Part shown: piece by piece, positions 26,883 through 37,523 of the stretch
How the letters are laid out: each line of letters starts with the position of its first letter
Numbering within the stretch: the first letter of the stretch is position 1
NCBI GenBank assembly: GCA_964016885.1
Contig: OZ024740.1
Span: 363,072,001-363,136,000, forward strand
Length of the DNA stretch: 64,000 nucleotides
Reading direction: 5' to 3'
DNA from: Eledone cirrhosa
Taxonomy: Eukaryota
Position numbers and translations under genes: made by a program
The notes under the pieces: generated by a model
What the model saw: the letters and a program-made list of their open reading frames with translations, nothing else
Told to the model about the DNA's origin: nothing
Database searches by the model: none

Positions 26883-26930
26883 TATATACTTTCCTTATGA
26901 AAATTAACGGCTGAGCAGCCTAATTTGCAT
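26883..26930 (-). promoter_or_regulatory. Putative octamer + PSE-like/TATA module (family A, one per unit)
   Basis: Sense strand ATGCAAAT-TAGGCTGC-TCAGCCGTTAATTTTCATAAGG-AAAG-TATATA. Conserved with families B and C; promoter function is inferred. Confidence 0.45.
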
Positions 26931-28562
26931 ATTGAGTGAGTTAAATCGGTCAGGCATACCGAAAACGATAAATTGAAACAAAATGAAAACGAAATTTCAT
27001 TTCTCACTCTTAGTATGGCACTTACTTAAATGTAAGTATGCATGTATACGTACATACATATATGTATACAGACGTACAGTAGCATGCACATATATATATA
27101 TATATACATATATACATACATATGCATACAGGTACACATACATATATGCACGTATCAGTTTAGCGGCGCTAACGTCGCTTTGTTCGTTTGTAAACAAACT
27201 GAACAGCCTGAATTTATGCCATACGGTGTTAAGGCAACCACGTCACCTTTTTGTTCAACACTGACACAGGAACGATGTACTAGTTTCAAGCTTGTTAGCT
27301 ATCATCAGCACCGTTTACCCATCTGCCAGATAGTTGAACGTTCGAAAGTATATACTTTCCTTATGAAAATTAACGGCTGAGCAGCCTAATTTGCATATTG
27401 AGTGAGTTAAATCGGTCAGGCATACCGAAAACGATAAATTGAAACAAAATGAAAACGAAATTTCATTTCTCACTCTTAGTATGGCACTTACTTAAATGTA
27501 AGTATGCATGTATACGTACATACATATATGTATACAGACGTACAGTAGCATGCACATATATATATATATATACATATATACATACATATGCATACAGGTA
27601 CACATACATATATGCACGTATCAGTTTAGCGGCGCTAACGTCGCTTTGTTCGTTTGTAAACAAACTGAACAGCCTGAATTTATGCCATACGGTGTTAAGG
27701 CAACCACGTCACCTTTTTGTTCAACACTGACACAGGAACGATGTACTAGTTTCAAGCTTGTTAGCTATCATCAGCACCGTTTACCCATCTGCAGATAGTT
27801 GAACGTTCGAAAGTATACTTTCCTTATGAAAATTAACGGCTGAGCAGCCTAATTTGCATATTGAGTGAGTTAAATCGGTCAGGCATACCGAAAACGATAA
27901 ATTGAAACAAAATGAAAACGAAATTTCATTTCTCACTCTTAGTATGGCACTTACTTAAATGTAAGTATGCATGTATACGTACATACATATATGTATACAG
28001 ACGTACAGTAGCATGCACATATATATATATATACATATATACATACATATGCATACAGGTACACATACATATATGCACGTATCAGTTTAGCGGCGCTAAC
28101 GTCGCTTTGTTCGTTTGTAAACAAACTGAACAGCCTGAATTTATGCCATACGGTGTTAAGGCAACCACGTCACCTTTTTGTTCAACACTGACACAGGAAC
28201 GATGTACTAGTTTCAAGCTTGTTAGCTATCATCAGCACCGTTTACCCATCTGCCAGATAGTTGAACGTTCGAAAGTATATACTTTCCTTATGAAAATTAA
28301 CGGCTGAGCAGTGTCGTTCCTGTGTCAGTGTTGAACAAAAAGGTGACGTGGTTGCCTTAACACCGTATGGCATAAATTCAGGCTGTTCAGTTTGTTTACA
28401 AACGAACAAAGCGACGTTAGCGCCGCTAAACTGATACGTGCATATATGTATGTGTACCTGTATGCATATGTATGTATATATGTATATATATATATATATG
28501 TGCATGCTACTGTACGTCTGTATACATATATGTATGTACGTATACATGCATACTTACATTTA

Positions 28563-30260
28563 TATATATATGTATATATATATATATATATATATATATA
28601 TATGTATATATATATATATATATATATATATATATATGTATATATATATATATATATATATATATATATATGTATATATATATATATATATATATATATA
28701 TATATGTATATATATATATATATATATATATATATATGTATATATATATATATATATATATATATGTATATATATATATATATATATATATATATATATA
28801 TATATATATATATATATATGTATATATATATATATATATATATATATGTATATATATATATATATATATATATGTATATATATATATATATATATATGTA
28901 TATATATATATATATATATATATGTATATATATATATATGTATATATATATATATATGTATATATATGTATATATATATATATATATATATATGTATATA
29001 TATATATATATGTATATATATATATATATATATATATATGTATATATATATATATATATATATATGTATATATATATATATATATATATATATGTATATA
29101 TATATATATATATATATATATGTATATATATATATATATATATATATATGTATATATATATATATATATATATATGTATATATATATATATATATATATA
29201 TATATATATATATATATATATATATATATATATATATATATATATGTATATATATATATATATATATATATATGTATATATATATATATATATATATATG
29301 TATATATATATATATATATATATATGTATATATATATATATATATATATATATATATGTATATATATATATATATATATATATATATATATATGTATATA
29401 TATATATATATATATATATATATATATATATATATATATGTATATATATATATATATATATATGTATATATATATATATATATATATATATATGTATATA
29501 TATATATATATATATATATGTATATATATATATATATATATATATATATGTATATATATATATATATATATATGTATATATATATATATATATATATATA
29601 TATGTATATATATATATATATATATATATATATATGTATATATATATATATATATATATATATATATATATATATGTATATATATATGTATATATATATA
29701 TATATATATATGTATATATATATATATATATATATATGTATATATATATATATATATATATGTATATATATATATATATATATATATATATATATATATA
29801 TATATATATATATATATATATATACATATATATGTATATATATATATATATGTATATATATATATATATGTATATATATATATATATATATACATATATA
29901 TGTATATATATATATATATGTATATATATATATATGTATATATATATATATATATATATATATATATGTATATATATATATATATGTATATATATATATA
30001 TATATATATATATATATGTATATATATATATATATATATATATATATATATATGTATATATATATATATATGTATATATATATATATGTATATATATATA
30101 TATATGTATATATATATATATATATATATATATATATATATATATATATATATATATGTATATATATATATATATGTATATATATATATATATATATATA
30201 TATATATATATATGTATATATATATATATATGTATATATATATATATATATATATATATA
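28563..30260. repeat. (AT)n with GT interruptions
   Basis: Direct inspection. Confidence 0.95.
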
Positions 30261-30554
30261 TAAAAACAAATAACGAAACGAAATTAAACCTCGCTTCGTT
30301 TGTAACTCACTTTTGTATGACTGACGCTTAAACAATTAAGTTAAAAATGTACATCCACATATGTATACTGAAATACTAGTATGCATATGAATACACACAC
30401 GTATACATATGTAGATGTACCGAGTTTTTCACTGGTCACTTTACTGCGAGTGTCCAGCTATTCTGTATGTAAACACACAGACAAACCGGTTTTTAGAGTC
30501 ATACTGGTTTTTGAGGAAACACCTTTCCTCTATTCTCCAGAAAGCCAGACAAGG

Positions 30555-30599
30555 AATATTGAACTAGTTTCGATGTTGTTACATCTCATCAGCAATATT
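30555..30599 (-). ncRNA. Minimal type I hammerhead (family B), repeated every 466 bp to 35681-35725 (12 copies)
   Basis: AATATTG-CTGATGA-GATGT AACA ACATC-GAAAC-TA-GTT-CAATATT. 7-bp stem I, 5-bp stem II, palindromic ACTAGT stem III, GUU triplet. Confidence 0.88.
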
Positions 30600-30644
30600 T
30601 ACCTATCTTCCGGCCTCTCTAGAGAATCGTAAAAGCACATATCG

Positions 30645-30692
30645 TTATATGCTTTTTCTATGAAAATTAGTAGTGGGCAGACTAATTTGCAT
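30645..30692 (-). promoter_or_regulatory. Putative octamer + PSE-like module (family B, one per unit)
   Basis: Sense strand ATGCAAAT-TAGTCTGC-CCACTACTAATTTTCATAGAA-AAAG-CATATAA. Confidence 0.45.
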
Positions 30693-36685: not shown

Positions 36686-36759
36686 TCACCTGACGAGATC
36701 AGTGACAATCGATCATGGCCGCACGATCGATCTATCTCATATTGAAACATATGTCGTGA
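36686..36759 (+). ncRNA. Probable type I hammerhead (family F island ~36642-36940 within AT repeats)
   Basis: TCAC-CTGACGA-(long stem II region including ATCGATC/GATCGAT)-GAAAC-ATAT-GTC-GTGA. Palindromic stem III ACATATGT; base of stem II imperfect. Confidence 0.6.
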
Positions 36760-37020
36760 TTAAAATGATTAGAAAATTATACCATGCCTTCGGATCTTTA
36801 TTTTGATACAAATACTCAGTTTTACCTCATCTAGCTGTCCCCATAAATGGAATTGGAGTTATACAAAAACGTGGAGAACTTAATATTGCTAACAAAAGTT
36901 TATTGGACCGTTTGACACAACCAATAATACACCTTACTATATATATATATATATAAAAGAAAATTTCGCTCAACATGGCTGAATACAATAAATGTAATCT
37001 GAGTATTTAGAATATTAATA

Positions 37021-37210
37021 ATTGTTTCTAATTTTGGCACAAGGCCAGCAATAAACCAGTGCATTACTGGTACTTTATTTTATCGGCACCGTAAGGATGA
37101 AAGGCAAAGTTAACCTCGGCGGGATTTGATCTCAAACCATAAAGGGCCGTAAATCTTTGCTGCAAAGCATGACGTCTGACAATCTACCGATACTGCCAAT
37201 CCACCGCTCT
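37021..37210 (-). mobile_element. SINE inserted into family C, with TSD ~GAATATTAATAAT
   Basis: Homologous to 63297-63487 and other copies. Flanked by TTTAGAATATTAATAAT / TTTCGAATATTAATAAT. Confidence 0.75.
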
Positions 37211-37329
37211 TTTTCGAATATTAATAATAACACTCGATTCGTTTACAATTATGCAAACAAGCCTCTTCTTTTATAACCATGTCAGTAAAAAGAACACTTC
37301 ATTCTTGCTCTTATGTTGGCATGTGAACA

Positions 37330-37379
37330 GAACTGCAGACACTAATGTTTCTGGGTATCACCCTTCATCAGTACAGTTC
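37330..37379 (-). ncRNA. Type I hammerhead (family C)
   Basis: GAACTGTA-CTGATGA-AGGGT GAT ACCCA-GAAAC-ATTAGT-GTC-TGCAGTTC. 8-bp stem I, GUC triplet. Confidence 0.8.
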
Positions 37380-37407
37380 ACCTGCCAAACTCTCAAAGCT
37401 AGTGAAA

Positions 37408-37523
37408 ATATATGCTATTTTCAAAAGTAAACGGTGACTGATCGGCCTGATTTGCATATTAGCAGACTGGCTGATCAGTCAGATCTGCATATTAGCAGAT
37501 CCACTGATCAGCCAGATTTGCAT
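37408..37523 (-). promoter_or_regulatory. Three octamer motifs at 33-bp spacing, followed by a PSE-like box and ATATAT (family C)
   Basis: Plus-strand ATTTGCAT at 37450 and 37516, ATCTGCAT at 37483. Sense TCACCGTTTACTTTTGAAAAT at 37437-37417. Confidence 0.5.

Follow-up and report, generated by a model that had tools for sequence, protein, structure and literature searches.

The window analysed here, 64,000 nucleotides of the Eledone cirrhosa genome (assembly GCA_964016885.1, contig OZ024740.1), contains three families of tandem repeats, A, B and C, with units of 466 bp, 466 bp and about 440 bp. They lie among (TA)n tracts and next to a Penelope-like element (PLE) (Table 1). Each of the 16 module-bearing units in the window has a hammerhead core, a helix I of 7-8 bp and an NUH site. 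The three families are non-LTR retrozymes with type I hammerheads, and their insertions in (TA)n have a Penelope-type anatomy. For B, the hammerhead matches Rfam HH9 (E 2.6e-6, under the gathering score), and no Rfam match in the window reaches the gathering threshold; the A and C hammerheads were called by eye and stem pairing. Helix III of A is very short and palindromic, suggesting that this ribozyme likely acts as a dimer. Folding energies of the whole hammerheads are unremarkable (z 0.2, -2.0, -2.1). The 466-bp units have a GC content of about 37%, below the 45% criterion for retrozymes, and our survey of open reading frames in the window found no non-repeat frame of 150 aa. B is dispersed, with at least 198 matches over many contigs of the genome; contigs from four of six runs were compared with B and inform on presence and variants only. 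C copies are mostly 1-1.5 units long, with a tandem portion seen in locus L278. The sequence-only reading of this DNA had described the units as poorly conserved outside their promoter module. This holds for C, whose body is the only unalignable one of the three, but not for A and B, which are homologous over the whole unit (identity in the body is 61%, against 48% after shuffling; the local score is 122, against 27±5).

Table 1. Features of the window; a slash precedes the predicted start base
Feature	Position	Strand	Remarks
Penelope-like element, partial tandem of 3.9 kb	14038..23647	-	ORF 15354-17819, RT then GIY-YIG-like
Family A retrozyme array, 3.9 units x 466 bp	26509..28311	-	3' end abuts (TA)n; octamer starts 26930, 27396, 27859
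A octamer-NAG boxes	27386..27396; 26920-26930; 27849-27859	-	host box at -76 to -79
A PSE-like core TCAGC	27376..27380	-	26 nt ahead of TATA
A TATA-like box	27349..27354	-	predicted start C/A at 27324
A type I hammerhead	27271..27315	-	predicted cut between 27278 and 27277
A insertion, second arm, inverted (unit positions 3-251)	28314..28562	+	repeat comparison, end mapping
(TA)n target tract separating A and B	28563..30262	.	comparable tracts 23643-26509, 36165-36642
Family B retrozyme array, 12 units x 466 bp	30260..35868	-	3' end abuts (TA)n; octamer starts 30692 to 35818 (12 units)
B promoter module, unit 2	31112..31158	-	recurs each 466 bp
B unit 2 octamer-NAG; core CCACT (degenerate); CATATA	31148-31158; 31138-31142; 31112-31117	-	
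B unit 2 predicted start T/A	31086	-	
B type I hammerhead	31021..31065	-	predicted cut between 31028 and 31027
B insertion, second arm, inverted (unit positions 3-302)	35868..36167	+	end mapping
Family C insertion, ~1.4 units x 440 bp	36955..37767	-	split by unrelated repeat
Dispersed repeat unrelated to C, inserted in C body	37018..37210	.	repeat comparison; further copy 63295-63484
C type I hammerhead	37330..37379	-	predicted cut between 37338 and 37337
C promoter module	37409..37523	-	three octamer boxes in 33-bp repeats
C octamer boxes	37516-37523; 37483-37490 (ATGCAGAT); 37450-37457	-	octamer start 37457
C core TCAGT; CATATA	37437-37441; 37409-37414	-	predicted start C/A at 37383
C insertion, second arm, inverted	37768..37966	+	abuts (TA)n

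The three module strings quoted in the sequence-only reading are all present upstream of a type I hammerhead on the minus strand. Each module runs in the order octamer-NAG, a YCAVY core 16 nt on and a TATA-like box 25-27 nt past the core, so placing octamer and TATA 41-43 nt apart; from octamer start to CTGATGA there are 88 nt (A), 100 nt (B) and 86 nt (C). C was said to have three octamers and then a fourth, but it has three octamer-like boxes altogether, the middle one being ATGCAGAT. The proposed likeness of the C box to the vertebrate TCACC PSE was rejected as well: TCACCGT is a minority variant found in one of 24 other copies, 16 of which read TCAGTCACTGT at that site, and the conserved core is the preceding TCAGT, matching the host's TCAGT/CCAGC.

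Within the window the octamer occurs 19 times against 5.6 expected, a weak enrichment since tandem copies account for 15 of them, and the genome-wide tests therefore bear the main weight. Octamer-NAG upstream of a hammerhead core has 20,051 exact matches in the genome, using a pattern that omitted the PSE-like core (+16) and TATA (+41 to +43), while the reversed pattern has none. For 25 non-redundant hits chosen solely on octamer and hammerhead core, the mean core score is 1.24 (shuffled -6.0±0.8) and the mean TATA score 2.93 (shuffled -3.2±0.7), values reached in none of 2000 shuffles, confirming that the module lies inside ribozyme repeat units. Core scores are negative in 11 of the 25 hits, and only three score as high as host genes do in leave-one-out (6.1-14.1). 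Eight hand-picked element lineages, not independent because they share ancestry, all keep the core-to-TATA distance at 25-27 nt, and seven have Y/A 30-31 nt past TATA (shuffle P 0.003, with the 3-nt start window fixed after inspecting the data). Module and hammerhead share a strand and are a fixed distance apart. Between A and C, identity is 68% in the module (47% shuffled) and 45% in the body (43% shuffled). Young families at 96-100% identity keep the module intact. In 20 old copies of a further family, D, the boxes are barely more conserved than the spacers (octamer 0.96, TATA 0.91, core 0.82, spacers 0.78-0.88).

The sequence-only reading had proposed a comparison with the species' own snRNA upstream regions, and this comparison found host counterparts for the octamer-NAG, the YCAGY core, the TATA-like box and the spacings. 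Fourteen gene families were sampled (U1, U2, U3, U4, U5, U6, U11, U12, U4atac, U6atac, 7SK, MRP, RNase P and tRNA-Sec). ATGCWAAT-KAG is the host box at -76 to -79 of U6, U6atac, MRP and tRNA-Sec, with TATA 46-48 nt on in seven distinct Pol III promoters (three U6 types, U6atac, MRP, two tRNA-Sec); among the host genes sampled, this adjacent octamer occurs in Pol III genes only. All 17 distinct U1/U2/U4/U5/U12 promoters have YCAGY at -55 to -58 and, 25-29 nt further along, a TATA-like box. A 3' box is found in 15/15 host Pol II genes and an AATTAA box at -88 to -91 in most of them. Exceptions to the Pol II rule are U11, without YCAGY, and U4atac, with TCAGT at -72. 7SK and RNase P have TCAGT 33 and 32 nt ahead of TATA, and both end in T-runs. 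Start bases are Y/A in U1, U2, U4 and U12 and T/G in the five Pol III genes compared. The box lies at -76 to -78 in seven of 27 U6 loci, is displaced to -270 in six and is missing there in 14, which look like retrocopies; the same goes for five of six U6atac loci. Displaced and boxless U6 loci were left out of the matrices, as were five of six U6atac loci, near-identical array copies and some further U1 and U5 loci.

On the host Pol III matrix (leave-one-out range 11.5-16.8) the octamer boxes of A, B and C score 18.6, 16.1 and 16.1. PSE-like cores TCAGC (A) and TCAGT (C) stand at host distance; the core of B, whose array is the largest in the window, is degenerate (CCACT), and its score of -5.8 is inside the range of U6-type genes (-1.9 to -6.8). 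The element octamer-KAG adjoins the PSE position as in host U6-type genes, while the core-to-TATA distance fits U1/U2/U4/U5/U12 and not 7SK/RNase P or U6. The host Pol II spacing of 25-29 nt is found in 8/8 lineages and the Y/A start in 7/8; the spacing of host Pol III genes (46-48 from octamer to TATA, 32-33 from core to TATA) with a G start was not found in the elements. With an octamer as in U6-type genes and spacing as in Pol II genes, the element promoter is thus a hybrid, likely read by Pol II. Judged from sequence, the host-like module of about 55 bp at the unit end is probably an external Pol II promoter, with a predicted start 12-28 nt ahead of the hammerhead core. The polymerase class, which the sequence-only reading had left uncertain, is narrowed by spacing to likely Pol II. 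The elements do not have every Pol II mark: by eye, no AATTAA box was found at the host distance, and no host 3' box was found in A or B, C having a weak 3'-box-like word. None of the 14 host families sampled has the hybrid layout that a possible donor gene would show.

Insertion ends bear out the earlier supposition that the promoter is copied along with the element, since the copied DNA includes the promoter stretch. At the DNA level, new copies begin at either of two set points, 35-110 nt upstream of the octamer, and extend backwards over cleavage site and promoter to any length; they usually take the form of two inverted arms within (TA)n. B 3' ends fall at unit positions 225-233 in 25/64 and 296-302 in 34/64, C 3' ends cluster near positions 143 and 176, and B 5' ends are uniform along the unit (n=68, KS p 0.94). 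Loci for end mapping were picked for full-length or module-bearing matches, which biases these figures to long arms, and A ends were left uncounted because subfamily divergence and internal TA fragmented the mapping. Counted by hand, 28 of the 40 B loci have two inverted arms. In A, the 3' end of the main arm extends about 53 nt past the end of the inverted arm, leaving a one-sided tail; tails measure about 33 nt in C, 53 nt in A and 70 nt in B. An inverted 5'-truncated arm, a one-sided tail, a (TA)n target and variable 5' ends are thus all found, as for Penelope-type insertions. A linear monomer as the usual template for reverse transcription was rejected, with only 2/68 B 5' ends within 10 nt of the predicted cut. 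One arm in each of the three window insertions begins 2-3 nt past the predicted cut, including the minus-strand arm of C (2 nt past), and C has a small excess of 5' ends just past it (6/55 at +2 to +10). These ends are a mere hint of linear-monomer templates.

The same junctions bear on whether the module could be a variant type 3 (U6-like) Pol III promoter with a shortened octamer-to-TATA distance, whose transcripts stop at T-runs and only rarely read through into promoter-bearing circles. The main 3' junctions of B (unit position 302, T5) and C (position 176, T4-T8) lie at T-runs, as expected of Pol III ends, and A has T4 runs only. The octamer-KAG found in no sampled host genes but Pol III ones, and a B core degenerate to the same degree as in U6-type genes, also speak for this reading. 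We nevertheless consider it unlikely. The octamer-to-TATA distance is 41-43, never 46-48, the core-to-TATA distance 25-27, never 32-33, and the base 30-31 nt past TATA is A, not G, in 7/8 lineages. Moreover, T5-T8 runs and the sequence past them are routinely present in copies: a T5-T6 run lies inside the copied RNA in 137/137 complete B units, and T6-T8 directly precedes the octamers in 16/24 C copies. The 3' end of the neighbouring PLE is likewise T-rich with TA microhomology, so T-rich junctions require no Pol III. Because copies span T5-T8 runs as well as the cleavage site, they fit a circular template carrying the promoter.

Retrozymes appear promoterless in a 2020 review (PMC7761336), and the weak contrast between boxes and spacers in the old D copies would also suit a module that is no working promoter today, but either the remnant of an snRNA upstream region that was once captured or a sequence with a role at the RNA level, the arrays being transcribed by read-through from outside. 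This seems improbable, as octamer, core, TATA and Y/A are spaced much as in the host in lineages that have diverged to chance level both in the body and between TATA and hammerhead, and the module keeps its strand and its fixed distance from the hammerhead and is intact in young families. Less probable still is a promoter of dual use, with Pol II making read-through RNA for the circle and Pol III making short RNAs that end at T-runs: the hybrid layout does join a box of Pol III genes to Pol II spacing, and the compact human H1 promoter has dual Pol II/Pol III activity, but no second TATA at the Pol III distance was found in the sequence of A, B or C.

The window PLE has its own hammerhead without the octamer module, and no octamer was found at the hammerheads of this PLE and other repeats. 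In the ESM Atlas its ORF falls with HTH_animal, GIY-YIG and RVT_1 clusters at 0.96-0.98; searches against Pfam and PDB gave no matches. We found no sequence common to the retrozymes and the window PLE, and those PLE ORFs that lie near modules looked like nested insertions. PLEs are likely the source of reverse transcriptase and endonuclease for the retrozymes, the window PLE being a candidate of that kind and a putative partner. An autonomous PLE bearing the module (loci L197/L211, L214) was rejected, as module and PLE ORF are on opposite strands there, consistent with nested insertions.

If the module is a Pol II promoter, a POU factor bound to the octamer would recruit Pol II together with SNAPc on the core beside it, since the core-to-TATA spacing is that of host U1/U2/U4/U5/U12. 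Pol II would then read through the T5-T8 runs into the following unit, as A and B lack a 3' box. By analogy with known retrozymes, two consecutive hammerheads would excise one unit containing the next promoter, and host ligase would close it into a circle. A Penelope-like RT/GIY-YIG enzyme rolling round this circle would let the promoter be inherited, though a linear transcript would lose it. Each of the roughly 20,000 copies would likely turn on its own transcription and hand its promoter on to new copies through circular RNA. The circle would offer a route for inheriting an external promoter, which is normally lost in retrotransposition.

The sequence-only reading took such a promoter to be an unusual solution for a mobile RNA, but a precedent exists: newt satellite 2 is reported to have an snRNA promoter used by Pol II (PMC2220036, citing Coats, Zhang and Epstein 1994, NAR 22:4697). 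As far as that secondary account goes, satellite 2 resembles the elements here in being a hammerhead repeat in tandem whose unit contains an snRNA-type promoter, with Pol II as the (here likely) polymerase. The elements here differ in belonging to an invertebrate, in their many lineages and in the number of copies with the module, about 20,000. Set against the newt repeat as described, they have the 16-nt distance between octamer and core that is typical of host U6-type genes, as well as a TATA-like box and mapped Penelope-type two-arm insertions. The newt promoter is said to use octamer and PSE.

Like other animal non-LTR retrozymes (Cervera and de la Pena 2020, PMC7229834; PMC7761336; preprint 10.64898/2026.07.22.740005), A, B and C consist of non-coding tandem units that each contain a type I hammerhead, are low in GC and dispersed, occur alongside Penelope-like elements and fit the circular template and multimeric cDNA proposed for such elements. 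The 2020 review takes retrozymes to be transcribed by read-through, with no promoter of their own, and sees no motif indicating a partner (PMC7761336). Unlike the retrozymes of that review, the elements here have a host-matched promoter module, with octamer-KAG as in U6, U6atac, MRP and tRNA-Sec, and YCAGY core, core-to-TATA spacing and Y/A start as in U1, U2, U4, U5 and U12; they also show the inverted arms, the tail on one side and the (TA)n target known from PLEs. The supplements of PMC7229834 and of the preprint may contain retrozymes with such boxes. PLE pseudo-LTRs, which contain the start site (Craig et al. 2021, PMC8557442), share the partial tandems, the inverted 5'-truncated copy and the microsatellite targets; their tail at one end is 30-40 bp, against about 33-70 nt in the elements here, which have no ORF. 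The Schistosome hammerhead satellite and the Cassandra, Helenus and Ajax TRIMs are likewise non-autonomous mobile repeats with a promoter borrowed from a small-RNA gene. Theirs, however, are internal Pol III promoters (tRNA or 5S type) within the transcript, whereas the promoter here is external and would be inherited only via a tandem or circular template.

Tentatively, animal retrozymes might in general be self-promoting RNA circles. The lineages here would have built a promoter absent from the host, in which an adjacent octamer of U6 type is combined with the geometry of Pol II snRNA genes and the 3' box is lost; snRNA-type promoters within the unit would then be old and general, in amphibian and invertebrate alike, and would explain constitutively high circRNA. 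The analysis yields base-level predictions of starts, boxes and polymerase for about 20,000 copies and connects these copies with the newt finding, which has been neglected. With octamer/PSE modules in their thousands, the elements might also make demands on SNAPc and POU factors or give rise to transcription starts across the genome. A metagenome scan for the module returned at least 118 stretches, at least 76 of them distinct; among the matches listed, two fold as hammerheads and none has a TATA at +39 to +46 by pattern. One stretch (L380) is a weak lead to other animals. As a by-product, the U6-type and U1-type promoter grammar of Eledone cirrhosa is useful for guide-RNA vectors.

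The three octamer-containing modules quoted in the sequence-only reading were found on the minus strand of the window, in families A, B and C, each 86-100 nt before the CTGATGA motif of a type I hammerhead whose helix I measures 7-8 bp. Rfam returned no match at gathering score; the B hammerhead matched HH9 below that score (E 2.6e-6). Octamers number 19 in the window against 5.6 expected, but because this count mostly reflects tandem copies, the module was tested genome-wide. In the 3.0-Gb host genome, which is rich in AT microsatellites, the pattern octamer-NAG, 70-95 nt and hammerhead core occurs 20,051 times as an exact match, and its reversed control 0 times. 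A second pattern, built to pass over the principal forms of families A, B and C, found 596 matches of greater divergence and brought older lineages to light; for one of these, D, there are ~1,645 candidates, with identities of roughly 75-86%. Family C has ~3,329 candidates. The remainder of the units had been described as poorly conserved, which holds for C, whose body is unalignable with either other family, but not for A and B, which are homologous throughout. The 50-nt module of C is 68% identical to both A and B, compared with 45-47% in shuffles, part of this identity being built in since the octamer is the alignment anchor. The TATA-to-hammerhead stretch of C compares with A and B at chance level.

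To compare the module with host promoters, we used upstream regions of 14 small-RNA families, leaving out retrocopy-like loci. U6, 7SK, MRP, RNase P and tRNA-Sec are Pol III genes and U1-U5 are Pol II genes. PMC1761439 also distinguishes U6 from the other snRNAs by polymerase. ATG(C/G)WAAT-KAG lies at -76 to -79 in seven distinct Pol III promoters (three U6 types, U6atac, MRP and two tRNA-Sec), with TATA 46-48 nt away at -30 or -31. The RNase P (L205) and 7SK (L421) loci have a canonical TCAGT core and lack an adjacent octamer, which makes two subtypes of Pol III promoter in this host; TCAGT lies 33 nt before TATA in 7SK and 32 nt before it in RNase P, and T-runs end both genes. All 17 distinct U1, U2, U4, U5 and U12 promoters used have a YCAGY-like core at -55 to -58, followed 25-29 nt later by a TATA-like box, most with AATTAA at -88 to -91, and a 3' box near AAAATCAGAY follows in 15/15 Pol II genes checked. 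U11, U4atac and U3 fit the Pol II rule imperfectly. In the U3 snoRNA genes (L206-L210) the YCAGY core at -57 is absent, a TCACGTCA-like box occurs around -61 and TATA sits at about -31, a layout that appears Pol III-like; one of these genes (L206) has a T7 run at its 3' end. Such a layout is unusual for animals. In a U6 array (on C19, L054 group), the octamer is displaced to -270 in 6 of the 11 copies read, apparently by an insertion between octamer and TATA.

The comparison with host snRNA upstream regions, which the sequence-only reading had proposed, bears the module out: it is real and matches the host in octamer box, core, TATA and spacings. The A, B and C octamer boxes score like host Pol III boxes, with YCAVY 16 nt after the octamer and ATATA at +41 to +43. 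Core and TATA were outside the search pattern, which held only octamer and hammerhead core, and their scores in 25 non-redundant hits lie far above 2000 shuffles, the core profile having a single peak at +16. Among the 76 distinct, mostly chance, metagenome matches listed for a like pattern, the core occurs 3 times and TATA never. The core-to-TATA distance is 25-27 nt in eight element lineages, and Y|A (the bases either side of a predicted start site) falls 30-31 nt after TATA in seven of the eight (P 0.003), lineages that are related to one another. Host U1, U2, U4 and U12 also start at Y|A, and the five host Pol III genes examined at T|G. By its spacing the module does not read as a U6-type promoter; a U6-type adjacent octamer box together with Pol II-type core spacing and start mark it, on sequence grounds, as a hybrid. 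Counting against this reading are the degenerate B core (score -5.8), negative core scores in 11 of the 25 hits, the relatedness of the lineages and an only slight contrast between box and spacer conservation in old D copies.

Of 64 B 3' ends, mapped at 40 loci picked for long matches, 59 lie at unit positions 225-233 or 296-302 and adjoin (TA)n; the octamer is at position 336. The 68 5' ends of B are spread uniformly over the unit (KS p 0.94) and do not pile up at the predicted cut or start. Ends in C group around 143 and 176. By hand count, two inverted arms are present at 28 of the 40 B loci, and one arm ends at each terminus in 18 of the 25 with both ends mapped. The arms run across both cleavage site and promoter, which bears out the earlier suggestion that the promoter stretch is copied with the element and fits a circular or multimeric template. 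We infer promoter activity, polymerase class, an RNA circle and a partner RT. In each window insertion (28314, 35868, 37767) one arm begins 2-3 nt beyond the predicted cut of the hammerhead, a start that is not general in B and in slight excess in C. Within 30263-35854, one variant is common to B units 3, 5 and 7 and a second to units 8-12, a pattern suggesting that the template was dimeric or that unequal exchange took place later; such exchange may also account for part of the array length.

If the module is a promoter, Pol II alone quite probably transcribes it, because of spacing, start base and T-runs. T5-T6 lies within the copied stretch in 137/137 complete B units, and T6-T8 directly upstream of octamers in 16 of 24 C copies, so that the template RNA passes signals that would stop Pol III. 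Transcription by Pol III would agree with an octamer adjacent to the core and with main 3' junctions at T-runs. A and B lack a 3' box, and an snRNA-type Pol II complex on them would then be able to run on.

A, B and C share DNA-level features with non-LTR retrozymes as described in PMC7229834 and preprint 10.64898/2026.07.22.740005, and by these features are classed as putative members. B and C insertions resemble Penelope-like elements (PLEs) as described in PMC8557442 in having an inverted copy, a tail on one side and a preference for microsatellites; PMC10886601 and PMC13652810 add context only. The review PMC7761336 says of retrozymes that they seem to be without promoters. According to PMC2220036, citing Coats 1994, Pol II uses an snRNA promoter in newt satellite II, and the schistosome satellite has a Pol III promoter. 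The retrozyme module would work like the newt satellite, as an snRNA-type promoter in a hammerhead repeat. That precedent tempers the earlier view of an unusual solution for a mobile RNA. The module's hybrid layout and scale, its occurrence in an invertebrate host and the mapping of insertions with the promoter stretch copied are new. The accessible portion of the preprint has no promoter discussion, the word 'promoter' is absent from PMC6155905 and PMC2837043, and no such module in an invertebrate retrozyme was found in the literature searched (main texts, with few subscription journals). A short metagenome contig (L380, 263-390; single record) carries octamer-AAG, then TACATAA after ~45 nt, and its type I hammerhead is well formed; it may be a lead to another animal.

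Features of the window and of lineage F, a distinct module-bearing lineage
Feature	Position	Strand	Description
Family A array	26509-28311	minus	3.9 units x 466 bp
Family B array	30260-35868	minus	12 units x 466 bp
Family C	36955-37767	minus	~1.4 units of 440-bp repeat
PLE beside A	14038-23647	minus	3.9-kb partial tandem; intact-looking
Further type I hammerheads in other repeats	133, 5975, 6177, 9178	-, -, +, +	TA-rich helix III; octamer module absent from all
LINE-type reverse transcriptase frames (two)	6955-8073, 53871-56012	-, -	Unrelated to module; first adjoins run of N
Lineage F (locus L204)	5312-5620		Octamer, TCACC core, TATA, hammerhead with slight degeneracy; one unit, with (TA)n at its end

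Pfam missed the 821-aa open frame of the first PLE copy beside A, which is RT followed by GIY-YIG-like sequence; the second copy is frameshifted. The PLE hammerhead cores at 14130, 18023 and 21917 lack the octamer and are promoterless. Directly before helix I, A, B and C have GGTAAA or AGGTGA (27319, 31069 and 37382, minus strand), resembling a 5' splice site, which could be relevant to U1 binding or parallel the intron of the Penelope pseudo-LTR. At another locus (L214), an inverted 699-bp block is duplicated (3926-4624 and 6046-6744), comprising an A copy and, on the opposite strand, the 3' part of a PLE ORF.
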